A stretch of DNA of 64,000 nt from Parvularculaceae bacterium (GTDB lineage: Bacteria; Pseudomonadota; Alphaproteobacteria; Caulobacterales; Parvularculaceae), in the NCBI GenBank assembly GCA_965263305.1, contig OZ253666.1, positions 1,773,511-1,837,510 of the forward strand, written 5' to 3'. Positions 1 to 13,801 of this stretch are shown here, piece after piece; position 1 is the first letter of the stretch; each line of letters starts with the position of its first letter. The notes below the pieces were generated by a model, which worked only from the letters and a program-made list of their open reading frames with translations, searched no databases and was not told the origin of the DNA. The translations under genes and the position numbers were made by a program.

Positions 1-683
1 AAGTGAATTGGTCGACGCTTCACCAATCCCATTGAGGGGCGGCGCGCCACCCGCCTGCTGACGACATCACCCGCTTTTGCGCCGTCCACCGGCCCGACAC
101 GTTACATAAGGCCGGCAGACTTCTAATGGTGAGCGCTGGCGCGGTTGAGCCTTTTGAGGACGCCGCACGGGCCGTTTTCTGATCACCAACAAACCGGCGC
201 CGTTTGATAAAGCTCCAACGAGCGGTGAGGTCATCGCGGTCGAAAAACCCCTCTGGGGCCGGAGCAAGAATGTTAGCATCAGCCCTTATCGGCGGCGCTG
301 GCGCTTCCGTCTTAAAGAACCTAACCTTAGAACCGGAGGAGTGGAATGGACCACAGCATTTCATTCCCCTTTCGCGTCCAGGATTTTTACATTCCTTACA
401 CATTAAAAATACACGCACGGAAAGAAGCGCTACGCGATTGAAAGTGGATTGGATCACAGAAATTCTTTCACTTTTTCAAATATACCGCATTCTTAATGAT
501 CATAATATTTTATTGCCGCTTATCTTATCTAGATTTCATCAAATTGATTAAGATTCTAAATTCCAATCACCGCGGCCCTATGTTTTGATTGGTGTGCGCC
601 GGATAGAGAGAAATTGTCGGTGTACATTCTTTTATCCATGGTGGGTATTAGATGATTTAAAACCTAAGAAAATGAGAGAAACC

Positions 684-848
684 ATGAAAAACCTAGAAAT
701 CACGAATGCAGATCAGATCGTTGAACTTTCTGACGCAGAAGTAGTTGAAATCTCTGGCGGCGTTACAAACGGGTCTCCAACGAATAGCTTGTTCTGTGCG
801 TTTTGCGAACCGCGCGACACCTGCCGTGCCGTGTTCTGGTGCCAATAA
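684..848 (+). CDS. Small precursor peptide (54 aa) with double-glycine-type leader and Cys-rich core: MKNLEITNADQIVELSDAEVVEISGG / VTNGSPTNSLFCAFCEPRDTCRAVFWCQ
   Basis: Internal Met of track ORF 585..848 with GAGAGAA Shine-Dalgarno-like sequence just upstream. The leader matches the double-glycine consensus L(-12)S(-11)xxE(-8)hxxI(-4)xG(-2)G(-1). The core has 4 Cys, and a hairpin terminator lies immediately downstream. Start choice (684 versus 672) is uncertain. Confidence 0.6.
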   Translation: MKNLEITNADQIVELSDAEVVEISGGVTNGSPTNSLFCAFCEPRDTCRAVFWCQ

Positions 849-853
849 AAGAC

Positions 854-918
854 GTTAAGTGAGAAATTTTCTCACTAACGGCACGCAGGTGATAACTCAC
901 CTGCGTGCTTATATTTTG
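854..918 (+). terminator. Tandem hairpins (AGTGAGAAA/TTTCTCACT, then a 12-bp GC-rich stem GCACGCAGGTGA-taac-TCACCTGCGTGC) followed by TTATATTTT; a rho-independent terminator or attenuator between the precursor gene and the downstream gene
   Basis: Perfect inverted repeats read directly from the sequence; a T-rich tract follows the second stem. Confidence 0.5.
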
Positions 919-952
919 CCGGACATGGTGATCGTAAATTCTCGAGCGAAAA

Positions 953-2632
953 ATGAAAAACTCTGCGTCACTCTCCGCAAAAGCGGCGTTAAAAATCAAT
1001 AACACGGTGCTGACCACGCTTTATAGTGATGCGCTTCGCGAAGGTGGCGTCGATCTACCGGCGCGAACCCTGGAAAAAGCGATGAACACGCATCCTAATT
1101 TTCCAGGTTTTAAGGCTTTCCACGAATGGGCGTCGGACCACGGATTGAAGTTGCGCGTTTTTCAAGGCAATCCTAGTCAGTTATCGAAATTGGTACCCTG
1201 CCTTGCTTTCTTTCGGGTGAGTGATGGCCGCTTAGAACCCTTGGCGATGATACGGGACACGCGGGACGGTGAGATCCTCCTCGATGACGAACACGGTTTG
1301 CACTGGGAACCGGTCGAAAAAATTCAAGGGTACAATTGCGAGATCTTTGTCAAAGTATCGGCGCCAGAAACACCCTCGACCGACGCGTTGACGAGCGTAA
1401 TACGCGAAAACACGTCTGAAATATGGCGAAAGCGGATGGTGTTGGCTTGCGTTTTCGTCGCTCTTATTATTGCGCTCGCAATGCAGTGGGTGTCCGCACC
1501 CGGATTGTCGGCGCTGGGCCTTTCGGCTCATTTTATTTTGAGTATTGTCGGGATTGGTCTCGCCGTCGAGTTAGTGTCCCTGACGCTTGGGCGTAACGCC
1601 GGACTTGCGCCAAACATTTGTGAAGCAGCAGCTCTGGCGCAATCTGGCTGCGGGAGTGCATTAACGTCGCCGCTATCAAAAATCGTCCCTTGGATCGGAT
1701 TGCCGCTGGCAACGCTCGGCTATTTTTTGGTGATGGCGTTGGCCGTCGGGTTAGGCGCCGGTATCGCAGGCCTACATGGCTGGGTAATGATCATAAGCGC
1801 GGGCGCCATCGTTGCAGGGCTCGGATCACTCTACTACCAAGCCGTCGTTTTAAGAGAATGGTGCCATCTCTGCTGTCTCATGATTGGCGTGATGGCGCTT
1901 CAGGCGGTAGCCGCCCTGCTGTTCGTCTCCTCCATCGTGACCCAATCGACAATGCCAGAGATTGCCGGCGCCATGATACTCGTCTGCTTATTTGCCACGG
2001 TATTCGCAATACTTGTTATCGCTGAACCCTATCTTGAGGGTGCAAGCGAATACGAAAATGTCTATGCGCACTATAAGCAGCTCCTCCAAAAACCACAGAT
2101 TCAAATCGATACTTTCAGAGGGCAAGCATTCGAGTTCGGATCTGTTGATGGTGATATTGTTCTTGGCGACATGAGCGAGGACGCTGCGGAACTGGCGTTG
2201 GTGGTCAGTCTGGGTTGCAATGGATGCGCAATCACCATCGCGGATGTTGAACGTTTGAGACGCCGGTTCTCTGATGGCGTTCGTGTACGGATCCGGTTGG
2301 CGATCGAACAACCAAATGTCTATTTCGATATTGCCGACACAATCGTGACCGCATCCGCTGACGGGCGCCACGAGGACGCGTTTTCAATTCTTCTAGCGGA
2401 AGTGCGTAACCCGACGAAGGTTTCTCGACATACGGCCAGGCGGGCTGACCCGGCGGATTATTCAGAAGCGCTCCGGGCGCAATTGCGTTGGTACAAAGAA
2501 GTGCAACCGCCGACGGTGCCATTAACAACATTCAACGGGTATATTTACCGCGGGCAACTCGCAGACATGCGCTATTTAATCGAAGAAGTCGCCGCAGATA
2601 TATGCGCCACACGGCTCAAAAAATCTGCATAG
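953..2632 (+). CDS. VKOR-family membrane thiol-disulfide oxidoreductase with a C39-like N-terminal domain and a C-terminal thioredoxin-fold CXXC domain
   Basis: The N-terminal segment LKLRVFQGNPSQLSKLVPCLAFF...DDEHGLHW resembles the C-terminal half of the papain-like C39 fold. The central domain has multiple TM helices with a loop Cys pair (NICEAAALAQSGCGS) and a TM-embedded W-CHLC-C (CXXC), which are hallmarks of vitamin K epoxide reductase homologues. The C-terminal soluble domain has VVSLGCNGCAI (Trx-like CXXC). Confidence 0.65.
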   Translation: MKNSASLSAKAALKINNTVLTTLYSDALREGGVDLPARTLEKAMNTHPNFPGFKAFHEWASDHGLKLRVFQGNPSQLSKLVPCLAFFRVSDGRLEPLAMIRDTRDGEILLDDEHGLHWEPVEKIQGYNCEIFVKVSAPETPSTDALTSVIRENTSEIWRKRMVLACVFVALIIALAMQWVSAPGLSALGLSAHFILSIVGIGLAVELVSLTLGRNAGLAPNICEAAALAQSGCGSALTSPLSKIVPWIGLPLATLGYFLVMALAVGLGAGIAGLHGWVMIISAGAIVAGLGSLYYQAVVLREWCHLCCLMIGVMALQAVAALLFVSSIVTQSTMPEIAGAMILVCLFATVFAILVIAEPYLEGASEYENVYAHYKQLLQKPQIQIDTFRGQAFEFGSVDGDIVLGDMSEDAAELALVVSLGCNGCAITIADVERLRRRFSDGVRVRIRLAIEQPNVYFDIADTIVTASADGRHEDAFSILLAEVRNPTKVSRHTARRADPADYSEALRAQLRWYKEVQPPTVPLTTFNGYIYRGQLADMRYLIEEVAADICATRLKKSA

Positions 2633-2645
2633 GGTTTATGGGGCG

Positions 2646-2993
2646 TTGGATCAGAATGCGCTTTACCCACTGCTTCTCAAATATGGAAAACCAGAGTTCA
2701 TACGTTCCGACAACGGCCCGGAGTTTATCTCTGAATACTTTCAAAGCTGGCTGAAAAAAGTTGGGGTCAAACCCATCCGCATTTATCCAGGCTCACCCCG
2801 GAAGAACGGATACAATGAGCGTTTCAATGGAACCCTTCGCCGAGAAGTCCTCAATGCAGAATGAATCGCATCAATCGATCAGGCAAAAACAGTCATCAAC
2901 CGATGGCTAAACCAGTACAACCGGATCCGCCCGCATCAGGCGCTCGGCATGCGCCCTCCCGTGCCAGAAACTCTATCAAAAATTGGGACATAA
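2646..2993 (+). pseudogene. IS3-family transposase (OrfB integrase-core C-terminal part) fragment with an in-frame TGA where Trp is expected; the N-terminus is missing
   Basis: The rve-like motif ...IRSDNGPEFIS...GSPRKNGYNERFNGTLRREVLNAE is followed by TGA. The same frame then continues as IASIDQAKTVINRWLNQYNRIRPHQALGMRPPVPETL, a typical IS3 OrfB C-terminus. There is no upstream OrfA or catalytic N-terminal region. Confidence 0.7.
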
Positions 2994-3037
2994 TGAACGG
3001 GCTTTACACCAGCAAATACAATCCGCGCCGGCGTTAT

Positions 3038-3184
3038 CGAATTACTGCCTATCTCAGCAACCCAGATTCACGGCTCGAGCTCGCGCAGCAAATGGCGGGG
3101 CACGCCGATCCGAAAACGACAAGGATGTATGATCGGCCGTCCGATCAAGTTTCGCTTGATGAGGTTGAGAAAATTGGAATTTAG
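3038..3184 (+). pseudogene. Tyrosine recombinase (phage-type integrase) C-terminal fragment
   Basis: The tail of track ORF 2861..3184 reads ...LAQQMAGHADPKTTRMYDRPSDQVSLDEVEKI, which matches the conserved integrase C-terminus (GH..xxTTxxY with catalytic Tyr). No upstream integrase body is present; the first half of that ORF is an alternative-frame read of the IS3 fragment. Confidence 0.5.
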
Positions 3185-3433: not shown

Positions 3434-4393
3434 CTATTGAGAACGTTTAATCATGCGCTCTAGAAACGCATCAATATCTTGGGCCGTGCGGTCAGGCGCT
3501 TCTTCCATTGGCAGGTGTCCAATACCCTCATATACGACGACATCTGCTTCAGACAAACGCTCGGAAAACGTTTTCGCAGCGGATGGGAAAATTCGTTGAT
3601 CTTCCGCACCCCAGATAACGAGTGTTGGGGCCGGAATATCCCCCAATCGTTCAGCATAGATTGCTTCCCGGTCAACAATGGCGCGTAAGATGGCAGCGCG
3701 CCGATTTCCAGGATACCGCAATAGTTCCCAATACCGATCAATAACGTGCTCGGCCATCACTTCTTTGATGCTCACACTCTGCAGCGCAGAAGCCTCTACG
3801 ATACTACGCTGTATGAAATGTTTTGCCGCAAACCGTCCGACTGGGTTTTGCAAGATTAAAGAGCGGAAACTAAAAGAGGGTATTTTTTCTCCCTCACGCA
3901 GGGGCATGCCCGCAGCATTCAGCAAAAGTAAAGCTTTCACGCGTTCCGGGTTGTCGAGAGCATACCGCCATGACACCCATCCGCCCAAGGAATTACCACC
4001 TAGAACAAACGTAGGTAGATTTAACTCCCGGGTTAGATGATCTAGTGCTTCGGCCATTCCGGAAAAAGAGTAGTCATCTCGCGGATGTGGACCGGTCAAT
4101 CCATGACCGGGCTGGGTGTAGGTTATTATCCGATACTCTTTGCCAAGGCGTTCGACCAGGGGTTCCCATGTATGCAGAGATGCGGCAGCCCCGTGGAGGA
4201 AGACGATGGTTTCTCCATGGGGATTTCCCTGATCACGATAGTGAATACGAAATCCATCATCGGTTTCGAGAAAGCGCGATGCCTCATTCGTATATTTTTC
4301 AACCATCGCATCATGACTTGTGTCTGGCGTGCGGGTCAGGAAAATCGCCAGTACTACAATTAAAAGGCCGGTTAGAAGGGCGTATTTTTTCAT
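3434..4393 (-). CDS. Secreted/membrane-anchored alpha/beta-fold hydrolase
   Basis: Has a GNSLGG nucleophile-elbow motif (GxSxG), HG oxyanion motif (FLHGAAAS) and a C-terminal His (GIGHLP). N-terminal hydrophobic signal/anchor MKKYALLTGLLIVVLAIFL. Start taken at internal Met (aa 23 of track ORF). Confidence 0.75.
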   Translation of the reverse strand: MKKYALLTGLLIVVLAIFLTRTPDTSHDAMVEKYTNEASRFLETDDGFRIHYRDQGNPHGETIVFLHGAAASLHTWEPLVERLGKEYRIITYTQPGHGLTGPHPRDDYSFSGMAEALDHLTRELNLPTFVLGGNSLGGWVSWRYALDNPERVKALLLLNAAGMPLREGEKIPSFSFRSLILQNPVGRFAAKHFIQRSIVEASALQSVSIKEVMAEHVIDRYWELLRYPGNRRAAILRAIVDREAIYAERLGDIPAPTLVIWGAEDQRIFPSAAKTFSERLSEADVVVYEGIGHLPMEEAPDRTAQDIDAFLERMIKRSQ

Positions 4394-4597
4394 GGCAATC
4401 CTATTTATCGAGATCAAAAAACGCCTCAGCCTGCCTTCAAGTTGATGATGAATAGTCAAGTCAAACTCTTCGCGGACGGCGCCATTGAAAATCTAGCATG
4501 TCCCATATGACAACTAAAATTATTTCCGTATACGATGTATGATAAGTATACCAAGAAATCGGCGTATGCGCCTCCCCATCAGGTCAATACCTTTCGT

Positions 4598-5890
4598 CTA
4601 CGAATTAGCTATCAGCAAAGCACAATTCTCTTCAAGTCTCTCTTTAAATGACTTCACCAAGTCATCTGGGATGAGGCTGTTTGCCGCCCCACAAAAAAAA
4701 CGAAGTTCATCATCAGTAACACCGATTCCAAAATACAATTTATGCATGATTGTCACTCTAGGTGTATACTGTTTTAGTACGCCCATTTTCTTAAGGTCTT
4801 TCGGCGTATTAATCTTTCCAAGACATGTAACAACGATGTCCACTTGCTCATCCGCACAATTTCCATCAAATAAAACCTGTTCTGTGTGGCTACTTGTAAA
4901 ATTAATGAAGCCAACGATTTGATCGATTGTTGGTCTTTTTTCTTTTATCTGTGCAGAAATGTCATTCACCACTTCCGACGTGCTACGGCTTATTAGATTT
5001 TTGATGTCTAAACGTACAATATCAGTATAAACACCGATTTGATTGGCTGGCAGCCTCGCAATTTGATGTTGATAGCTATGTGGCAATCCTAAGCGAAGGC
5101 GATCTGAGTTGGTTGCTTGCGCATATGATTTCGCCGCGATTGCTGCATAAAGGGCTATTTGAGAGATCTTTCGCGTCCTGCGATATTTGCTGATCGTGTT
5201 AGCAATGTTCGCACTCAGAATTCCGTCGAGCATATATTGCCCGTCATAGCGTATACTGGGCGAACCTCTTTGGCTAAACTTCAATTGCCGCTGCCATATT
5301 TTAAATTGTAGAGCTGCATACCAACTCTTGATGATGGAAAACGGCGCTTTCCTCCAACGAAGCCCCTGCAATTCATGTACAGCCCGAGCGATGCTGCCTG
5401 GTTGAAATTTTTTATCGGGGTCCAGTAGTAACCGCAGAAAATCGAAGAAGAGAGCGCAACCCGAAAACCCGTCACTGATCACATGGTGTACGGTGAAAAA
5501 AACAACGCTACTCTTTTCACCTCTTAAAACCCTACAAAATACGTATGGGTCATGCTCTCTAACAAAGCGTCTCTTCACTTCATTGTCGAACACTGCGCAT
5601 ATTTCATCTTCACAATGATACTCGCCCACGCAAACCTGGCCTGTAAAGTCCGGTTGCCTCTCAATAAAATGCGGCCCGTGCTGATGTTCTAGCGATACGC
5701 CCATTCCTAAGAGCGGGTATTTCACATATAGCCGGTTTAGCGCGCCTAAAACCCGTTGGCGCGAAATTTCTGTTTGATCGATTGTCGCAGCGAATACACA
5801 ATTCACTGGCGCCTCAAACCCTTGGGCCATCCATTGCTCATGAATTGTCAATGGCCTTTGAAACGTCATATGATTTTCCGCGCCATTCAT
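4598..5890 (-). CDS. HHxxxDG-motif acyltransferase (WS/DGAT wax-ester-synthase-like or free-standing condensation-domain family)
   Basis: FFTVHHVISDGFSG lies at about residue 135 of a 430-aa protein. This matches the WS/DGAT and NRPS C-domain active-site motif HHxxxDG in position and length. No adenylation or PCP partner is encoded nearby. Confidence 0.55.
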   Translation of the reverse strand: MNGAENHMTFQRPLTIHEQWMAQGFEAPVNCVFAATIDQTEISRQRVLGALNRLYVKYPLLGMGVSLEHQHGPHFIERQPDFTGQVCVGEYHCEDEICAVFDNEVKRRFVREHDPYVFCRVLRGEKSSVVFFTVHHVISDGFSGCALFFDFLRLLLDPDKKFQPGSIARAVHELQGLRWRKAPFSIIKSWYAALQFKIWQRQLKFSQRGSPSIRYDGQYMLDGILSANIANTISKYRRTRKISQIALYAAIAAKSYAQATNSDRLRLGLPHSYQHQIARLPANQIGVYTDIVRLDIKNLISRSTSEVVNDISAQIKEKRPTIDQIVGFINFTSSHTEQVLFDGNCADEQVDIVVTCLGKINTPKDLKKMGVLKQYTPRVTIMHKLYFGIGVTDDELRFFCGAANSLIPDDLVKSFKERLEENCALLIANS

Positions 5891-5970
5891 TTGCGACTAC
5901 ATGCTAAATTTATACTTATGTACGAAACGTGAGTTGGATAAGATCCTGGGTGCAAATTTACGGTGCAGCC

Positions 5971-7272
5971 TTACTCTGCGGCTTGCGTTGCTGGCGAAAG
6001 CCCCTTGCCGGCCGCAGCCAACGCCTTGTCTTTATTCGCTGGCGGCAATGTTATACCATAATCACGTAACAAAAAATTTCTTGATATTGGCGGGATGTAA
6101 TGCACCGAACCGAATATAATCTGCCAGCGGATTTTCCAATTCCGATTGTGCTTCAATTCGTAAAAAATCTGAACTATACCAGCAAAGCTATAAGCGCCAG
6201 GGCTCATTAAAACATCTGGTTCATGTGTTAACCCGACCGATGGCCTCTGCATTGGCGGCTCAACATAAGAGCCAAATACTCGATCCCAACACAAAAACGG
6301 GGCGCCGCTGCCAAGGTTTACGGCTTGGTGCTCAAGCTTGCTTGAATGATGCACATAATGATATGGGCCATGCCCTCCCGCCGCCATCATAATAAAGCGC
6401 CAAAAACGGCTTTTCATCACAATTTCATATGTTGACGCAATATGATTGTGAATACTCAAATTGATAGTGATAAGGATGAAAATCGATAATTCTAGGAGTA
6501 AGTACTGCCCAGTGAAGAGTCGAATTACAATCGAACCCACGATCGCTTTAATCGCAAATGTCCAAACACCGCCAAGCGGAAACGCCTGGTTTGCTTCAAA
6601 AACCGTTGCCGTATTTAGTATCGTCGAAATATGATGCGACCGGTGCGCACATAGCCATAATAATCGTGATTTATGGCATAGATAGTGATCTATATAAACA
6701 AATAGTCCTCCCAGAACGTAGGCCACTATGATTGCGAGAAAATATGGTAGTTTGAATAAATGTGGCGTAGACGTAATTAAAGCAACGATGAAGTTCGAAA
6801 ACGCCGTAACACCCTCGATCATCGTTAATCCGTAAAGGGCGGAAATACCCCATATCGATAAACTTAGAGACATCAACCAAAGAAGCAGATTTGATAAATT
6901 AGACAAAATGCAGAATACAACGTATCGGCGATCGTGCAGAACACCAGTCACCCGTTCCTGATCAATGTAAGACCTTGCGGAAGCGTAAGTCATATAGACG
7001 CCGCTAAGAACTGTCAGCGCCACATAAGCATGGATTAACCCGTCCCAACCTCGCGTTTGCATGGCGTCGACGTTGTCCCAAAATATCGGCATCGTGATCC
7101 CACCGAAGAACACCAGTAAGGTTGCAAAAATTGCATATTGTACAGCACACCAAGTATATCCGAAGAAATCGACGACACCGTAGTATTTCTCAGGAATATC
7201 AGGGACCTCATAGAATAGTTTATCAAGGAAGCTGTTATTTTTTCGTCCTACCCCTCCCTCACTCTCTAACAT
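5971..7272 (-). CDS. Membrane fatty-acid hydroxylase / sterol-desaturase superfamily di-iron enzyme
   Basis: Multiple TM helices plus the histidine boxes HKSRLLWLCAHRSHH, HNHIAS and HYVHHS characteristic of the FA_hydroxylase superfamily. Confidence 0.7.
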   Translation of the reverse strand: MLESEGGVGRKNNSFLDKLFYEVPDIPEKYYGVVDFFGYTWCAVQYAIFATLLVFFGGITMPIFWDNVDAMQTRGWDGLIHAYVALTVLSGVYMTYASARSYIDQERVTGVLHDRRYVVFCILSNLSNLLLWLMSLSLSIWGISALYGLTMIEGVTAFSNFIVALITSTPHLFKLPYFLAIIVAYVLGGLFVYIDHYLCHKSRLLWLCAHRSHHISTILNTATVFEANQAFPLGGVWTFAIKAIVGSIVIRLFTGQYLLLELSIFILITINLSIHNHIASTYEIVMKSRFWRFIMMAAGGHGPYHYVHHSSKLEHQAVNLGSGAPFLCWDRVFGSYVEPPMQRPSVGLTHEPDVLMSPGAYSFAGIVQIFYELKHNRNWKIRWQIIFGSVHYIPPISRNFLLRDYGITLPPANKDKALAAAGKGLSPATQAAE

Positions 7273-7287
7273 TTCGTTTCCCCTTTT

Positions 7288-8061
7288 TTAATTGTGGACG
7301 CGCTTTGCGAAATTTCGCATTGAGATGTTGAATGCGACAATTGTCAAAAACATGAGATAGCCGACCACGCCAGAAAATTTGGCAACCGCAATCGTGTTAT
7401 GGAGCGTAAGGTCTCTAATTACGTTCGTAACGAGCGCGCTGGGTAATACAATAACAACAGGCCGCAATAGCTCTGAACCTCCATCAAGAGGGAGAAAGAA
7501 ACCGGAAAACATTGTAGACGGCGCCACCCATAAAAACATAAACAGGGTAATGCCATGCCAACTTTTTATTATCGACACGGCCATAACACCTATTGCGCCA
7601 TAGCAAAGCCCCGCGACCAGTATCAATGTCAGAACTAAACCAAAATGCAGCGTCAGCTCTATTACACCGAGAACGACCATCAAGATCGTGATGATCGCCG
7701 CTACAATAACACCCTTCGTCGCGCTCCATAAAACTTCACCCGCAACAATGTTTCGCAACGAAAGAGACGTAGACAACATTGTCTTCCACGTTTGCGTATG
7801 TTTGAATCGTATAAATGTGACTTGTGAGGCTTCCGCCGACGTCGTAGTGAAAAGAACGAAACTAACAATCCCTGCCGCTAACCAATTGTGGTAGTTGGCG
7901 CCAACCATGCCTTGAAGCAGTTCACCCGCAGTCATCGCAATGGCCAATCCAATACAAACGGGCAACGCCAAGTCTGAGATCAAAGCAGGAACTATCGACG
8001 TTCGCCACACGAGAAAATTGCGCCTAACGACACTCATACTGGGAAATCGGGTGAGGATCAC
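7288..8061 (-). CDS. ABC-2 type exporter permease
   Basis: Six-TM hydrophobic protein with ABC-2 family character. Its start overlaps (ATGA) the stop of the upstream ATPase gene, indicating translational coupling. Confidence 0.7.
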   Translation of the reverse strand: MILTRFPSMSVVRRNFLVWRTSIVPALISDLALPVCIGLAIAMTAGELLQGMVGANYHNWLAAGIVSFVLFTTTSAEASQVTFIRFKHTQTWKTMLSTSLSLRNIVAGEVLWSATKGVIVAAIITILMVVLGVIELTLHFGLVLTLILVAGLCYGAIGVMAVSIIKSWHGITLFMFLWVAPSTMFSGFFLPLDGGSELLRPVVIVLPSALVTNVIRDLTLHNTIAVAKFSGVVGYLMFLTIVAFNISMRNFAKRVHN

Positions 8062-8981
8062 GACGCAATTGCCCTATGAGAATCTGTGTCACCTAGAGAC
8101 ATCATGACATCTTCCAGGGTTGTGTTCCGGTAAGAAAACTTTGCACCCTTGGGCAGGCGCTTGACGATTGACGATGCGTCATCTGTGAAAAAAATCATGG
8201 CTTTACCATTGTCATATCGCCGAATAGCCGGGTCATACAACATCGCGGAAACGGGCTTTTCGACGACAAGCGCGGATTTACCGGTTGTCTGATTAACAAC
8301 ATCTATCGGCGCGCCTTGCTCTAGCACCTTACCGTCTTTGATCAGATAAATGTAGTCGCAAAGCTGCTCTGCTTCTTCCATATAATGAGTAGAAACAATG
8401 ATGGATACGCCGCTATTTTTTAGTCTGATTAACTCTTGCCATACTTTCTTCCGCGATTGGGCGTCTAGCCCGGAACTTGGTTCATCAATGATGAGTAGTT
8501 CAGGTGAACTCATCTGCGCGCGGGCAATGATCAGCCTTCGCTGCATACCGCCTGATAGGGTATCAACGCGATCATGTTCACGAGATAAAAACCCTATCTC
8601 CTCTAACAGAGTCCTTGCTTGTTTTCTCGCAACCCGCGTATTGAAACCAAAATAGGTTCCGAAGACTTCTAAGTTCTGAATGACAGTTAGCTCTTGATCA
8701 AGATTATTATCTTGCGGAACGATACCAAAAATGCGGCGATCGTGATGGGTTAGCGTTCCGATATTTTTCCCATTAATTCGCACCTCCCCTGCATCAGCAT
8801 GCTTCAGTCCAGACAAAATAACCATCGTCGTGGATTTACCCGCGCCATTCGGTCCGAGTAACCCTGTTATCTTTCCCCGAGCGATCTCAACACTGAGGCC
8901 GTCAACCGCGATCGATTGTCCGTATCGTTTTGTGATACCGGTGGCAGATGCGATTGGCAGCGCGCAGTCACTCTCTACCAT
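8058..8981 (-). CDS. ABC transporter ATP-binding protein (ABC-2 exporter partner)
   Basis: Walker A LLGPNGAGKSTT, signature LSGGMQRRL, Walker B LLIIDEPSSGLD, and an H-loop. Confidence 0.85.
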   Translation of the reverse strand: MVESDCALPIASATGITKRYGQSIAVDGLSVEIARGKITGLLGPNGAGKSTTMVILSGLKHADAGEVRINGKNIGTLTHHDRRIFGIVPQDNNLDQELTVIQNLEVFGTYFGFNTRVARKQARTLLEEIGFLSREHDRVDTLSGGMQRRLIIARAQMSSPELLIIDEPSSGLDAQSRKKVWQELIRLKNSGVSIIVSTHYMEEAEQLCDYIYLIKDGKVLEQGAPIDVVNQTTGKSALVVEKPVSAMLYDPAIRRYDNGKAMIFFTDDASSIVKRLPKGAKFSYRNTTLEDVMMSLGDTDSHRAIAS

Positions 8982-10414
8982 GCCGCCTTCCCCCCGATTA
9001 ACCGATCAGGATTTTCCTTGGCAGTCCTTACGATATCGCGATACTGAAAAATAAAGGGAATACCGCGCAGACCACGAAAAATTTCATAACCCTGAATAAC
9101 AGACCTGAGGGTCCAAAAGATGATAAAGAGGAGACTTCTGTTGGAGATTTGAGTCAGCAAATTGGTTCCTGCTAACTGCGCCGCGCCCTCAAGGCCATTT
9201 AACCAACGCTGCATCTGGTCGCGCCCCGAGGTCAAACCGCCAGCTTCGGTGATATCAGCGCTTCTGTTTAAATGAACAACGGAACGGATCGTACAATTCT
9301 TCCGCCCAAAGATATGGGCTGCAATTGAAAATGTAATGTCTTCGACCCTGTTACCAGAGTATTTTGTGAACTCTCTTAATATTGCAACGCCTTCATCATA
9401 TTTCGCGAGCGTCGCGCCGCCTGGTAAGAAATTTAAATTTGCGTGCCCATGCATCAGGGCAGTGCCTGCGACAAGCGGATTAACGCGGGAATCATCCCAG
9501 ACTGGCTCCCCAGAATCATCAAATGGCACCAAAAGATTGCTAGCGCCAACGAAAAATTCTCCACCCCGGGATAACGAAATCATTTCAGATAAACCGCTCG
9601 GTTGTTCTGCGGAAAATTGTGATTTTATCGCTTTGAGGCGTGAAGAGCGGGAGAAAAAATCTTGTAAATTGTCTTTGAGCGTTCTTCGATCAAACTGACG
9701 GGATCGAAGTCGCGTTTCAGCGTCCATTGCTAATAAGTATTGCGGGCGATACCGTCCAACCATGTATTGATCGTATAAAAATTCATAAATATCGCGCAGC
9801 GCACGAACCTTGCCTCTATTTTTTTGATTATCGATATGTTGGTCAATCCAAATTAAATCAATCGACTTAGTATCACCCAGCGCTTGACTATCAATGCATA
9901 TTTCATTGGGTGCGTGTTCTTCGGCGTTAGATTGGTTTGGCGCCGTGTGCCCCCGGAACACACGATCAAATCCAAACTGACCTAGTGAATTTGACAATAA
10001 ACCAGTCGTACCGCCTCCATTGTTGAGGACAACGAACACTTCCCCATTCAGGTTGCATTCTCTCAATTGCGTAACGATTTCAGATAGCGTCGTCGGCAGT
10101 AGCTTGTCGGCGTCGAAAACGGATATCAAAATCGCAATCCGGTCTTTGTCGAAGCCAAATTCACCAATTCGCTGACGATCATTCGCGATACGATCAAGCG
10201 AACAAGCAAATTTTTCGTCCATCTGTGCGATTTGATCCGCAGGGGTCAGTTCACGCCATCGTCGCCAATCCATTCGGACATCACGAACGCACTGTTCCTT
10301 TAGCAAATTTAGATCAGGAACCTTAGTCCAAACGTTTTTCGTTTTGGCAGTGACGCTTGACGTTCGGAAAAAGCGATTACCTCTGTTGGTTCTTTTTTGT
10401 GTGAGCTCTAGCAT
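8975..10414 (-). CDS. Hypothetical protein (479 aa) embedded in the operon; function unknown
   Basis: Long ORF with consistent codon usage and tightly packed with its neighbours (7-nt overlap downstream, 6-nt gap upstream). I recognise no clear motif; a glycosyltransferase-like fold cannot be excluded. Confidence 0.5.
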   Translation of the reverse strand: MLELTQKRTNRGNRFFRTSSVTAKTKNVWTKVPDLNLLKEQCVRDVRMDWRRWRELTPADQIAQMDEKFACSLDRIANDRQRIGEFGFDKDRIAILISVFDADKLLPTTLSEIVTQLRECNLNGEVFVVLNNGGGTTGLLSNSLGQFGFDRVFRGHTAPNQSNAEEHAPNEICIDSQALGDTKSIDLIWIDQHIDNQKNRGKVRALRDIYEFLYDQYMVGRYRPQYLLAMDAETRLRSRQFDRRTLKDNLQDFFSRSSRLKAIKSQFSAEQPSGLSEMISLSRGGEFFVGASNLLVPFDDSGEPVWDDSRVNPLVAGTALMHGHANLNFLPGGATLAKYDEGVAILREFTKYSGNRVEDITFSIAAHIFGRKNCTIRSVVHLNRSADITEAGGLTSGRDQMQRWLNGLEGAAQLAGTNLLTQISNRSLLFIIFWTLRSVIQGYEIFRGLRGIPFIFQYRDIVRTAKENPDRLIGGKAAW

Positions 10415-10420
10415 TTGACA

Positions 10421-12826
10421 TCATCCTTGGGCGCTCATGCCAGCAACAACACGCTCGCTATCTTCCCTAACGAAAGGCTTCCTCTTGTTTGGCCCATTGC
10501 GAGCCAAACGTTCGTGTGCATTTGTAAATGACCCTGATGCGATTGACGCTGTAATAGAAATTTCTCCGCACAAACATAAAGCGCAGACTATTTCAGCCAG
10601 AGCAGCGGCGGTATTTGGACCTTCGCCAAGTCCCAATAATGAGAGGGCGGCTTTCTGGCTGGGCAATCCCGTGCCCCCCCCAACTGTCCCAACAATAATT
10701 CCTGGCATTGCTAAGGTATATCGAACACCTTGGTCCGTCCGCACTATTCTACCATTTCCGACAGCAGACTCTGCAACGCATGCAACATCTTGTCCGGTCG
10801 CCAGATATAATGCCGCTAAACCATTCGCCAGCTGAGCTTGTACACCGAATTGACCGCTAATTGAGGAGCCTAATTGGGCGACCTCGTGGTAGCGTATGAG
10901 TGTATCCGGACAAACGCCGAGCAATTTGTGACATACGTCATTTGGTATTGTCACCGATGCACAAACCGATCGCCCGCGCCCCTTCATGACGCCAGCGTAA
11001 CTTGCCTTCTTGTCACCAGACAATCCGCCGTCAATAAACCACTCCGATATTTTCAATGTCGAAATGTTGGCGATGTATCGGCACATTGCATCGGTTGCAA
11101 TGGTCGCCATGTTCTGGCCCGCCGCGTTCCCCGTCGTATAGCGGACAATTAGGTAGACAATCTCACCCTGGCGCAGGCAATCCAGCTTATTCACAACGCC
11201 AAAACGCGTGGTCTTTTGAGCAACACTTTTGAGGACATCTTTGCTCTTTTCGACCCATTCAACGAATTCTGTCGCAGCATTGAAATCTTGAAATAAAAAC
11301 GCCGGACAGCGCAGTACCCCATCATCGATTGTAGCAATCTCAACCCCGCCAGCTTTTCGGGCAGCCATGGCGCCGCGCGCATAGGATGCCACTAACGCTG
11401 CTTCGGTTGTTGCTAATGGCGTATAAAATTCTCCGATAGCATGATCACCTCGTACGGGAATAGGGCCGACTAGCCCCATTGGCACTTTCACGGTGCCAAT
11501 GTATTTCTCAATGTTCCCCGCATAGGCGCCGGCTTGATCAACGCTGTCCCCATCTGCGATGAGATCGTGGACACCGTCTTGGATATTAATGACATTGCCG
11601 AGTTTTTTCCATCGACGAAGCGTTGAATTTGAATGAAAGCTAGATGCTGGCTGGGAAGGCGCAGTTTTAAGATCTTTGTCAACACGAACCAGCCGTAGCG
11701 AACTACCATCGCTCCGTGCACTGCGCGCGCCAACAGAAAATGCTGTATTGTTAATAACATCCTGATTGAGAGTTGCTCTCTCATCGACAGACAGCGCCTT
11801 GGCAAAATATAATACTGTCTCGGCAAGTCCCGCTGATAGAGGGACGGTCGGTCGCCAGTTTAACAACTGGGTGGCGAGTCCAATATCTGGCTTCCTGATT
11901 TTTGGATCATCGCTCGGAGCTTCCTTAAACGAAATAGAAGTTTCCGTTGTAACAAAATCCTTCACCAGACCCGCAAGTTCCGCTATCGTAAATTCGTCTT
12001 GGTTGCCCAGATTGACCGGTCTAGCATTAACTTGGTTCACGGCCATTAACCGCAGCAGACCTTCGACTAAATCACTGACAAAGCAGAATGATCTCGTTTG
12101 CTTGCCGTTTCCATAGATCGTCAGCGGCGCCCCTTGCAAGGCCTGTACGATGAAATTCGAAACCACTCTTCCATCATCCGGCCGCATTCTGGGCCCGTAT
12201 GTATTGAAAATGCGAGCAACGCGAATATCGACGTCATGTTCTCGGTGATAATCAAAAAACAACGATTCCGCAGCGCGTTTTCCTTCATCATAACACGATC
12301 GAATTCCATTTGGATTCACGTTTCCGTTGTATGACTCGGTTTGCGGATGGTGATCTGCATGGGGATCGCCGTAAACCTCAGATGTCGACGCCTGTAGTAT
12401 GCGCGCTCCGGTTTTCTTTGCTTGTTCCAGTAAGTTCATGGACCCAATCACGCAGGTGCGCATTGTACGAATGGGATCTAACTGATAGAGGGGTGGAGAC
12501 GCCGGGCAAGCGAGGTTAAAAATAAAGTCCACATCGAACGTTTCGGACGTTTCGATATCCGCCTCGACGAAAGAGAAATTAGTATGATCCAGAACCGGTT
12601 GTATATTGATCAAAGAGCCAGTTTGGAGATTGTCTAAGCATGTAACGTCTGCTCCAAGCCCAAGCAGCCGGTCACATAGATGGGATCCCAAAAATCCTGC
12701 GCCGCCGCATACAAGCACTGATTTGTTTTTAAACGTTTTTTCCGCCCTTGCGCACCACTCCTCATGAAGAGCAATCGTTCCTTCGTCGCGAAGCATTACA
12801 ACAATCCCCGTTTCCCGTAAAAACAA
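10421..12826 (-). CDS. Fusion protein: N-terminal UDP-glucuronate decarboxylase/NAD-dependent epimerase-dehydratase-like SDR plus C-terminal class I HMG-CoA reductase-like catalytic domain
   Basis: N-terminus: Rossmann motif VCGGAGFLGSHL and a YxxxK region matching the UXS/extended-SDR fold. C-terminus: HMGR hallmarks VKVPMGLVGPIPV, TTEAALVAS, NAAGQNMATIATDAM (DAMGMNM-like) and GTVGGGT. Confidence 0.75.
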   Translation of the reverse strand: MFLRETGIVVMLRDEGTIALHEEWCARAEKTFKNKSVLVCGGAGFLGSHLCDRLLGLGADVTCLDNLQTGSLINIQPVLDHTNFSFVEADIETSETFDVDFIFNLACPASPPLYQLDPIRTMRTCVIGSMNLLEQAKKTGARILQASTSEVYGDPHADHHPQTESYNGNVNPNGIRSCYDEGKRAAESLFFDYHREHDVDIRVARIFNTYGPRMRPDDGRVVSNFIVQALQGAPLTIYGNGKQTRSFCFVSDLVEGLLRLMAVNQVNARPVNLGNQDEFTIAELAGLVKDFVTTETSISFKEAPSDDPKIRKPDIGLATQLLNWRPTVPLSAGLAETVLYFAKALSVDERATLNQDVINNTAFSVGARSARSDGSSLRLVRVDKDLKTAPSQPASSFHSNSTLRRWKKLGNVINIQDGVHDLIADGDSVDQAGAYAGNIEKYIGTVKVPMGLVGPIPVRGDHAIGEFYTPLATTEAALVASYARGAMAARKAGGVEIATIDDGVLRCPAFLFQDFNAATEFVEWVEKSKDVLKSVAQKTTRFGVVNKLDCLRQGEIVYLIVRYTTGNAAGQNMATIATDAMCRYIANISTLKISEWFIDGGLSGDKKASYAGVMKGRGRSVCASVTIPNDVCHKLLGVCPDTLIRYHEVAQLGSSISGQFGVQAQLANGLAALYLATGQDVACVAESAVGNGRIVRTDQGVRYTLAMPGIIVGTVGGGTGLPSQKAALSLLGLGEGPNTAAALAEIVCALCLCGEISITASIASGSFTNAHERLARNGPNKRKPFVREDSERVVAGMSAQG

Positions 12827-13030
12827 ACAAGCGCCAACCCGATAGTTATAATTCGCGGCTTAATACCATCATTATACCGATGCATAATCAGTCAGCATTT
12901 AATTCGATATCGAAATGTTTTGACACCGACGAATTTGTGATTGATTTACACAAAAATTTTACCTGCGCAATACCGCTTCCGAAAATACCACCCATGATTG
13001 TATTCATATAAAAAGAAACGCATAGAGATC

Positions 13031-13098
13031 ATTAAGAAACTTAACCAAAAAACGCATTTTGATTAAGAATCTTAACGTCCATCATTAAGATTCTTAAC
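13031..13098. promoter_or_regulatory. Three palindromic TTAAG-N3-CTTAA sites (TTAAGAAACTTAA, TTAAGAATCTTAA, TTAAGATTCTTAA) in the AT-rich region upstream of the leftward 7-gene operon; candidate operator array
   Basis: Read directly from the sequence: three perfect 13-bp palindromes within 70 bp, about 200-270 bp upstream of the operon's first gene start at 12826. Confidence 0.4.
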
Positions 13099-13801
13099 TT
13101 GGATCGCTATAAAGAGTAATCTGGCTCCCGCACCCATCGACCGATCTGGATATTTCGCGACGTGGGAAAAATATTTTCCTGACGAAAAAATGCGATAATC
13201 AGATATTTTTTTATTCGAAACGAATAAGCGGTTGAGCAAGATCGAGCCATATCTTTAGGCGAGGCCTCGCGGACTTCACGCATGGCTAAGCGCCATGCGC
13301 AATGTTTGAGTGCCCGCCTGTATCAAAAAGGGCGCACATAAAGCCTCTGTAAGGAAACCGGTCGCTCACGATCCTGACGGACTCTTTGTCTTATGTGATG
13401 ATGGCGTGACGGGGGCGTTGACCCAGATGCGAAAGGGCAATGAAACCGTCCGGCGACGGGATGGTTCCTGCTTATGAGTAATACAATCTCGGCCAGCGCA
13501 TCTCTGCGCCCATGGTGGCGAGCCGTCTACAGACGATTTACCGCTATGATCAGTTCAACTGGTTGAATGAAGCCTGCCATGACGTGCAATTCGGCGTGGG
13601 CTATGATCGGTAGTTAACCGTTAACAGCATCCGGCAGGTCAAATCGTCCGATAGACAAGAATTATAAACGATATTTGCATTGTTTGATTTCAGAAAAACT
13701 GATGTCGCTTTTTATGCGGGTGATAAATATTTATTTTGTGAGGATTGAGCGTGGCTTGCCCAATCGAAGTGGTCCAACCAATTTATTAGAGTTGGCGTTA
13801 C

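Follow-up and report, generated by a model that had tools for sequence, protein, structure and literature searches.

A C39-like/VKOR/DsbA-like fusion enzyme encoded beside a double-glycine-leader peptide: a candidate module for leader-guided disulfide formation before export

The window, the whole 64-kb stretch of DNA analysed here, encodes on its forward strand a 54-aa peptide with a double-glycine (GG) leader and four cysteines and, beyond two stem-loops, a 559-aa membrane protein that joins a C39-like domain, a VKOR core and a DsbA-like thioredoxin domain. We favour, with somewhat more than even confidence, the reading that the two genes form a maturation module, in which disulfides are installed in the cytoplasm under guidance of the leader and the peptide then leaves by type I export. 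We envision that the precursor would be made in excess because of a leaky terminator after its gene, and that the enzyme's catalytically inactive C39-like domain would bind the leader. The DsbA-like domain (C422/C425) would oxidise the four core cysteines to two disulfides and pass the electrons through the VKOR loop pair C223/C233 and the membrane pair C304/C307 to quinone, with the leader-binding domain and both redox-active parts (VKOR active site, DsbA-like domain) on the predicted cytoplasmic face. The oxidised, leader-bearing peptide would then pass to the PCAT/HlyD(/TolC) type I exporter encoded nearby, whose active C39 domain would cleave after the GG during secretion, bypassing the periplasm.

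The precursor gene (684-848, forward strand) translates to the leader MKNLEITNADQIVELSDAEVVEISGG (nt 684-761, ending in GG) and the 28-aa core VTNGSPTNSLFCAFCEPRDTCRAVFWCQ (nt 762-845), in which the cysteines are spaced C-x2-C-x5-C-x5-C. The initial annotation, made from sequence alone, had called this ORF a four-cysteine precursor with a GG leader, which holds; it had also described the leader as an exact match to the consensus, and here L-12, S-11, E-8, I-4 and the GG at -2/-1 agree, with V in place of L at -7 as the sole departure. The leader is thus hydrophobic at -4, -7 and -12 and acidic at -8. An alternative in-frame start, an ATG, lies at 672. Across all six frames of the window this ORF is the sole match to a strict GG-leader pattern; in shuffled windows the count was 0.76, falling to 0.06 when at least four cysteines were required. 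The leader also matches TIGR03949 weakly, at 16.4 bits, below the 21.5-bit cut-off. In a related contig, L004, the peptide gene carries 6 synonymous and 5 non-synonymous codon changes with the frame and the cysteine pattern intact, and a further locus, L089, encodes a homologous core although its enzyme is merely 23% identical to ours; the small ORF is therefore conserved. A search upstream of the gene for a promoter or LytTR-type repeats returned nothing convincing. As to its biological role, the peptide may be a bacteriocin or a signal.

Two stem-loops follow the peptide stop codon (853-919, forward strand), at about 853-880 and 880-909. The strong, attenuator-like hairpin expected here from the sequence is borne out by folding: the region reaches an MFE of -43.4 kcal/mol (z = -5.74), with 0 of 200 shuffles as good. 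The second stem-loop is terminator-like, with a 13-bp GC-rich stem followed by the U-rich tail TATATTTTG, and a terminator scan matches at 880-909. Both stems are identical in L004, where a single change falls in each loop. The second stem-loop probably functions as a leaky terminator or an mRNA stabiliser that would keep the precursor more abundant than the enzyme.

The 559-aa ORF (953-2632, forward strand) begins with a C39-like domain (residues 1-145, 953-1387), our proposed GG-leader binder. The domain shows both the C39 (papain-like) fold and sequence homology to it, and the alignment to the PCAT1 profile extends from the peptidase domain into the first transmembrane helix (TM1) of PCAT1. 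None of the 81 aligned family members has Cys in the catalytic Cys column and 5 of 81 have His in the catalytic His column, where our protein has P96; we therefore regard the domain as C39-like rather than as a peptidase, as first proposed, and reject an active leader peptidase. The neighbouring PCAT retains both catalytic residues. The VKOR core (TM1-TM4, with the linking helix TM5; residues 185-360, 1505-2032) scores 30.2 bits against Pfam VKOR (PF07884; cut-off 27.5) over residues 194-321. Its loop pair C223/C233 and its membrane pair C304-x-x-C307 (WCHLCC), which sits at the start of the fourth core helix, are invariant in the 81 sequences. The C-terminal DsbA-like thioredoxin-fold domain (residues about 380-559; 2090-2632, stop codon included) carries C422-N-G-C425 and the cis-proline P523; C422 and P523 never vary, and at least 90% of the 81 relatives have C425. 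Many family members carry a thioredoxin-like CGPC instead of a DsbA-like CPHC. With its CXXC and cis-proline following the fifth helix of the VKOR unit, this domain makes the protein a VKOR-Trx fusion, and both redox assignments of the initial annotation stand. Direct Pfam and NCBIfam scans of the N- and C-terminal pieces returned no match, nor did a single-sequence PDB search with the VKOR segment; the two terminal domains emerged through the family profile only.

The membrane arrangement departs from that of described VKOR-Trx fusions. An extra transmembrane helix, TM0 (residues 161-181, 1433-1495), absent from canonical VKORs and overlooked in the earlier sequence reading, precedes the core and brings the enzyme to six helices, a hydropathy pattern conserved family-wide. 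AF2 predicts a helix at 144-181, a 3-residue turn and a helix at 185-211, that is, a tight TM0-TM1 hairpin. By prediction, this differs from the canonical layout of five helices with the N-terminus in and the redox sites out: because of TM0, the C39-like domain, the VKOR active site and the DsbA-like domain are predicted to share one membrane face. Counted together, the Cys loop and the TM3-4 loop average 6.2 lysines and arginines, versus 0.9 in the three opposite loops, with the bias in the same direction in all 81 members, and none of the 81 has a signal-like hydrophobic N-terminus. From the positive-inside rule and the helix count of the predicted model, the shared face is thus predicted to be cytoplasmic. 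The basic stretches of the outward-facing Synechococcus VKOR (4NV2; LVKRWRW, GHRWLDGGK) fall in exactly the loops that are depleted in this family, so that the opposite orientation is predicted here. The concern that a cytoplasmic N-domain and periplasmic oxidation would lie apart is removed by TM0 and the same-face prediction.

Some points count against a cytoplasmic module. The cytoplasm is reducing, and a DsbA-like oxidase there would therefore compete with the thioredoxin and glutathione systems; the thioredoxin-like CGPC of many family members is another such point. Canonical VKOR-Trx fusions are oriented outward. The enzyme might be pictured as outward-facing, its C39-like and DsbA-like domains in the periplasm, oxidising the peptide or other exported proteins after translocation. 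We consider this unlikely. A stretch of about 146 residues would need to be translocated with no signal sequence, and the charge bias, uniform across the family, would have to be read against its sign. In PCATs the C39 domains lie in the cytoplasm, and export strips off the leader; a domain for binding leaders would find none in the periplasm. Moreover, type I secretion through PCAT/HlyD/OEP, as at L089, bypasses the periplasm.

Gene linkage across the enzyme family speaks to the partners of the cytoplasmic module. A word-indexed protein search recovered 3 family clusters only; an exhaustive profile search exposed the family, with 619 clusters (at 50% identity) at E<=1e-10. Domain assignments among 82 relatives were VKOR in 80, Thioredoxin_4 in 68 and Peptidase_C39 in 62. 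PGAP names members "vitamin K epoxide reductase family protein", and we found no curated NCBIfam model for the fusion family. A profile search of genome contigs gave one distant locus only, and exact look-up of P0001, P0002 and P0006 returned no contig. Metagenomes hold more than 570 loci; their survey used a profile built from a 19-sequence subset, is hence biased to Bacteroidota-like members, and covered 80 loci. Family members habitually adjoin Cys-rich GG-leader peptides, PCATs and HlyD/TolC-type partners: the linkage of fusion homologues to GG-leader peptides that the initial annotation had proposed as a check is found repeatedly. Among 80 metagenome loci, GG peptides with at least four cysteines lie on the same strand in 25 cases versus 2 on the other strand, and PCATs recur. 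Where at least 3 kb of flank was available on both sides, a PCAT or a peptide of this kind was present in 16 of 18 loci; about half of the 80 loci have neither, many of these contigs being just 2-3 kb long and the pattern strict. Individual loci illustrate the arrangement. In L001, three tandem GG-leader four-Cys genes lie directly upstream of a 47%-identical paralogue; L089 encodes a PCAT, an AprE-type adaptor, an OEP, the homologous peptide and the enzyme; and in L091 the order is peptide, enzyme, PCAT, adaptor. Annotated examples linked to a peptide or PCAT come from Parabacteroides and Emticicia, and the Bacteroidota members also include Sphingobacteriales. This linkage and the predicted same-face placement of C39-like domain and redox sites suggest a RiPP-like, leader-dependent modification that would take place before the leader is removed.

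The role of the dead C39-like domain could be conceived differently, with the enzyme still a dedicated oxidase: the domain might dock it to the PCAT/type I complex, or regulate it, so that proximity to the exporter provides the specificity. We judge this improbable. Loss of catalysis in C39 domains usually leaves substrate binding in place, the C39-like domain of HlyB being an example; that the HlyB domain binds another part of its substrate nevertheless counts against leader binding here. In addition, the peptides near family members retain canonical GG leaders even when their cores are unrelated.

The exporter that had been expected outside the window is found there. In L085, a 98.8%-identical contig, intact genes for HlyD and PCAT are located some 3.3-7 kb upstream of where the window begins, and a PCAT with catalytic Cys and His is present at the locus in both L085 and L004; HlyD, PCAT, peptide and enzyme occur together in L003, L004 and L085. 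Window positions 64-2656 are 92.5% identical to L004 6280-8909. The PCAT gene of L004 ends at 6527, and the window translation matches the PCAT C-terminus in two frames, which identifies a frameshifted 3' remnant of this C39-ABC exporter gene at 64 to about 311 (forward strand). At the window itself, then, the adjacent PCAT copy is a remnant, and IS and integrase fragments flank the peptide/enzyme module, a local counterpoint to the module reading; a TonB-dependent receptor is also encoded in the window and marks the source as a diderm. The flanking fragments and the PCAT remnant might suggest that the fusion has no part in maturing the peptide. It would then serve immunity or detoxification (the window yielded no immunity gene), be a general oxidoreductase placed there by chance, or belong to a module decaying among IS elements. 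We regard this as very improbable: neither gene is disrupted and both are conserved from contig to contig (the enzyme gene shows 20 synonymous and 19 non-synonymous changes in 560 codons relative to L004), the linkage to GG-leader Cys-rich peptides recurs across enzymes merely 15-25% identical to one another, and the bacteroidetocin thiol oxidoreductase, a possible member of this family, did not protect a sensitive strain that expressed it (PMC6671954).

The Synechococcus VKOR-thioredoxin fusion (3KP9, 4NV2, 4NV6) has neither the N-terminal domain nor TM0, with about 15 residues before TM1. Its C-terminal domain is a plain Trx fold, whereas the one here is DsbA-like (Thioredoxin_4, BdbD-like). 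Dedicated oxidoreductases of Gram-positive bacteriocins include PedC (pediocin PA-1) and BdbA/BdbB (sublancin operon); these work on the exported peptide beyond the membrane, lack a domain for leader recognition and rely on quinone reductases of DsbB type, not VKOR type. C39-like domains lacking the catalytic Cys are present in HlyB (CLD, 3ZUA) and Vibrio 3B79, while PCAT1, ComA and LahT150 are active. The domain here differs in being joined to a redox enzyme, not to an ABC transporter, and its substrate is presumably a GG leader, in contrast to the RTX domain of the HlyB case. For the predicted topology, Hatahet & Ruddock (2013) and Hibender et al. (2017) are said to have described an inward-facing VKOR in Aeropyrum pernix. 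This paralogue, ApVKORi, is cited as inward-facing in PMC13486548 and PMC12453122, and descriptions of such VKORs were confined, as of 2026, to "few Crenarchaeal species" (PMC13486548). ApVKORi, with its active site facing the cytoplasm, is the sole natural precedent for the topology we predict; it differs in being an archaeal, general oxidase with no C39-like fusion.

Judged by published description, the closest described system is the thiol oxidoreductase clusters of the bacteroidetocins (class IIf), which encode a 5-TM protein, a GG-leader Cys peptide, a thiol oxidoreductase and a PCAT (Coyne et al. 2019, PMC6671954). The peptide has four cysteines, the oxidoreductase gene lies between the peptide and PCAT genes, and deletion of the oxidoreductase attenuates bacteroidetocin activity (PMC6671954). 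Bacteroidota members of our family (Parabacteroides, Emticicia, Sphingobacteriales) occur in the same kind of cluster. At our locus a peptide, an oxidoreductase and a PCAT are present, and no 5-TM gene lies next to the window's genes; the likeness is drawn from the published description, which is silent on the domain make-up, topology and mechanism of the bacteroidetocin oxidoreductase (PMC6671954). Because such clusters already combine GG peptides and PCATs with dedicated oxidoreductases, the idea is not entirely new, which qualifies the earlier view that the system belongs to no known class. That view stands for the fusion itself: literature searches linking VKOR to bacteriocins, C39 domains or GG leaders brought up no relevant paper, and no published description of the C39-like/VKOR/DsbA fusion family was found in the literature searched.

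More broadly, we regard it as an evenly balanced proposition that these fusions are the first bacterial inward-facing VKORs and carry out leader-guided, quinone-driven, RiPP-like disulfide tailoring in the cytoplasm before export, widespread in Bacteroidota and present in other diderm lineages. If so, inward-facing VKORs, so far a feature of a few Crenarchaea, would also characterise a large bacterial family, and disulfide formation on a peptide in the cytoplasm before export, not described for bacteria, would explain how type I-secreted peptides that skip the periplasm acquire their disulfides. This would matter most in anaerobes without general Dsb machinery, and would offer a natural, self-contained module for producing disulfide-rich peptides in the bacterial cytoplasm. 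The family also provides a hook for genome mining: from at least 619 clusters and the metagenome loci, thousands of unannotated Cys-rich GG-leader peptides could be revealed. Those near family members have 4-8 cysteines and are knottin-like in appearance; the window's own peptide belongs to a very rare family, of which 5.8 billion proteins contained 2 clusters.

The 559-aa protein encoded on the forward strand at 953–2632 is a three-part fusion of a C39-like domain, a VKOR membrane core and a C-terminal thioredoxin (Trx)-fold domain, as the initial annotation had correctly described and placed it. It scores above the Pfam VKOR threshold, and the profile of its full family matches the solved structures of PCAT1 (5e-12), Synechococcus VKOR (2e-11) and DsbA-like proteins (1e-11). 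A word-indexed protein search with the enzyme returned only three clusters; an exhaustive profile search recovered 1931 representatives at E ≤ 1e-3, of which 619 reach E ≤ 1e-10, and the best 150 matches listed are mostly 500–600 residues long, with about half aligning across nearly the entire query. Among 82 aligned members, Pfam domains are assigned as VKOR (80/82), Thioredoxin_4 (68/82) and Peptidase_C39 (62/82). The family matches no NCBIfam model above that model’s cut-off, and the PGAP name of the Parabacteroides and Emticicia members is simply “vitamin K epoxide reductase family protein”. C223, C233, C304, C307, C422 and P523 are invariant in the family alignment and C425 is nearly so; therefore the complete VKOR-oxidase relay of Trx domain, loop pair and CXXC is present, with the cysteine pairs that had been read from the single sequence. 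The family profile of the N-domain matches the C39 domains of PCATs (C39-ABC exporters) with 98.7% probability (E = 1.7e-16). The catalytic-Cys column, however, holds Cys in 26/26 PCATs and in 0/81 family members, and the catalytic-His column holds His in only 5/81. With these residues missing, the N-domain is, on sequence grounds, a dead C39-like domain and not a peptidase, bearing out an earlier suspicion. At the Trx active site (query 422–425 in the family alignment) many members carry a thioredoxin-like CGPC rather than a DsbA-like CPHC; the window’s clade has CNGC there, and a third Cys directly after the membrane CXXC (WCHLCC). For one member, in Parabacteroides distasonis (NZ_OY725771.1, 4451–5996), the annotation gives a pair of overlapping genes, named “cysteine peptidase family C39 domain-containing protein” and “thioredoxin domain-containing protein”; the gene is either frameshifted or naturally split in two.

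The initial annotation had cautioned that the N-domain and the oxidation site would lie on opposite sides of the membrane, a difficulty removed by a sixth helix that it overlooked. Family-wide hydropathy and model secondary structure reveal a strongly hydrophobic helix (TM0, residues 161–181), linked by a three-residue turn to VKOR TM1 (185–211). Canonical VKORs have only ~15 residues ahead of TM1, where this family carries the dead C39-like domain and TM0. With six helices, the N-domain is predicted to share one membrane face with the Cys loop, the TM4 CXXC end and the Trx domain. Lys plus Arg in the short loops average 6.2 on the N-domain face versus 0.9 on the opposite face, a bias seen in 81/81 sequences. 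Moreover, the TM2–3 and TM4–5 loops, which are K/R-rich in the outward-facing Synechococcus VKOR (LVKRWRW, GHRWLDGGK), average 0.14 and 0.44 K/R in the family; none of the 81 members has a signal-like N-terminus; and the PCAT1 profile match runs on from the cytoplasmic peptidase domain into PCAT1’s first transmembrane helix. Taken together, these features argue for a cytoplasm-facing enzyme, an orientation we consider probable. According to a 2026 paper, the only VKORs known to face inward are paralogues from a few Crenarchaea, e.g., Aeropyrum pernix (PMC13486548; compare the references cited in PMC12453122). The enzyme could instead face outward like its Synechococcus counterpart; given the charge distribution, we regard this as unlikely.

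The candidate substrate is encoded just upstream, at 684–848 on the forward strand, by the only ORF in six frames of the 64-kb window to match a strict GG-leader pattern (shuffled windows average 0.76 matches, and 0.06 with at least four Cys). Its 54-aa product, correctly located and described from the outset, consists of the leader MKNLEITNADQIVELSDAEVVEISGG, with L-12, S-11, E-8, V-7 and I-4 preceding GG, and the 28-aa core VTNGSPTNSLFCAFCEPRDTCRAVFWCQ, whose four Cys are spaced C-x2-C-x5-C-x5-C. The strong hairpin noted 3′ of its stop codon resolves into two stem-loops (−43.4 kcal/mol, z = −5.7), the second of which, at 880–909 on the forward strand, is a 13-pair stem with a U-rich tail. 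The small ORF is conserved: in a 92.5%-identical contig, both hairpins and the Cys frame persist although codons differ, 6 synonymously and 5 non-synonymously in the peptide (20 and 19 in the enzyme), and a metagenome-assembled genome whose enzyme is only 23% identical clusters a PCAT, an adaptor, a TolC-like OEP and a 60-aa peptide with a homologous core, QAGKSPVSSFVCAHCWPRNKCKRMHWC. This peptide family has no other members among 5.8 billion proteins.

The separate exporter that had been expected beyond the window was found in a metagenome contig (L085/L003) 98.8% identical to the window’s first 2750 bases. Its upstream genes, ~3.3–7 kb before the window start, encode a hybrid histidine kinase, an 87-aa ORF, an HlyD/AprE-type adaptor and a 748-aa PCAT whose C39 domain is intact. 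The organism from which the window comes is a diderm. In the 92.5%-identical contig, a PCAT is followed directly by the peptide and enzyme genes. The window retains a frameshifted PCAT 3′ end at 64 to about 311 (forward strand), just upstream of the peptide gene, and in L085 the full PCAT lies 3.3 kb further upstream, beyond a 455-aa gene of unknown function; this arrangement suggests a duplication or insertion event.

Similar pairings recur elsewhere. The source genome encodes three paralogous enzymes, and upstream of a 47%-identical paralogue lie three identical tandem 52-aa GG-leader 4-Cys genes (MTKAIQLNNQELTLEELEQVSGG leader, SANDPIAPCNIRCLGEPTLLCCPVVVPNS core; 314 nt apart; L001 8973–9759). 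That leader scores 24.1 bits against the NCBIfam “CCRG-2 family RiPP” domain (cut-off 24), and the tandem genes adjoin a LytTR regulator and a hybrid kinase. A further locus is ordered GG peptide with 8 Cys, enzyme, PCAT, adaptor. Using hand-made patterns on short contigs, we surveyed 80 metagenome loci of more than 570 detected, a sample biased to Bacteroidota-like members: GG-leader peptides with four or more Cys occur on the same strand in 25/80 loci and on the opposite strand in 2; a full PCAT occurs in 24/80; and, of the 18 loci flanked by 3 kb or more of sequence on each side, 16 have a PCAT or a peptide of this kind. The same layout is seen in PGAP-annotated Parabacteroides and Emticicia loci.

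We infer with considerable confidence that the enzyme is a dedicated oxidase. The GG leader would be held by the dead C39-like domain while the core Cys are oxidised by the DsbA-like domain, electrons passing via the VKOR cysteines to quinone; a PCAT/HlyD/TolC system would then cleave the leader and export the peptide. Because type I export skips the periplasm and the leader comes off at export, enzyme and leader-bearing substrate could meet only in the cytoplasm, in agreement with the predicted orientation. The whole model, a leader-guided, cytoplasm-facing disulfide oxidase acting ahead of PCAT export, is the best-supported reading and somewhat favored, held no more firmly than the oxidase role and orientation it combines. 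The C39-like domain might dock on the exporter instead of the leader, which we judge improbable; an unrelated or immunity role is very improbable.

All components are already known: VKOR–Trx fusions, C39-like domains, PCAT-exported GG peptides and operon-encoded bacteriocin oxidoreductases. The closest described system is the bacteroidetocin clusters, where a “thiol oxidoreductase” gene, presented without domain analysis, separates the peptide gene from the PCAT gene and is needed for full activity (PMC6671954); it may belong to the same family. The initial view that no described class applies thus holds only in part: a literature search turned up no publication that connects VKOR to C39 domains, GG leaders or bacteriocins, so the fusion, TM0 and the predicted inward orientation appear undescribed, but clusters with a dedicated thiol oxidoreductase are not.

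Several neighboring genes deserve mention. P. distasonis NZ_OY725766.1 (5926–13542) has a family member and, after it, a Cys-rich peptide of 59 aa with a leader ending in AG instead of GG; next come a DUF4369 protein, a LanC-family protein, two glycosyltransferases and a PCAT, a hint that some clusters may add further modifications to the disulfides. On Emticicia oligotrophica pEMTOL01 (8438–9781), a TlpA-family disulfide reductase gene, whose product may be an isomerase or proof-reading partner, sits between Cys-rich peptide genes and a PCAT, in a cluster that also holds the VKOR fusion, with a histidine kinase and LytTR pair upstream. In the window, an rve-type transposase fragment and the apparent C-terminal end of a tyrosine recombinase (2646–3184) directly follow the enzyme gene; L085 carries an intact IS (HTH_Tnp_1 and rve; 12134–13284) at the point matching window ~2750. 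Beyond, a reverse-strand cluster (3434–12826) encodes an alpha/beta hydrolase, a 430-aa protein with an HHxxxDG motif and no Pfam match, a fatty-acid hydroxylase-like membrane protein, an ABC-2 transporter pair, a 479-aa protein of unknown function and, last, an unusual 801-aa fusion of NAD-dependent epimerase/dehydratase and HMG-CoA reductase.
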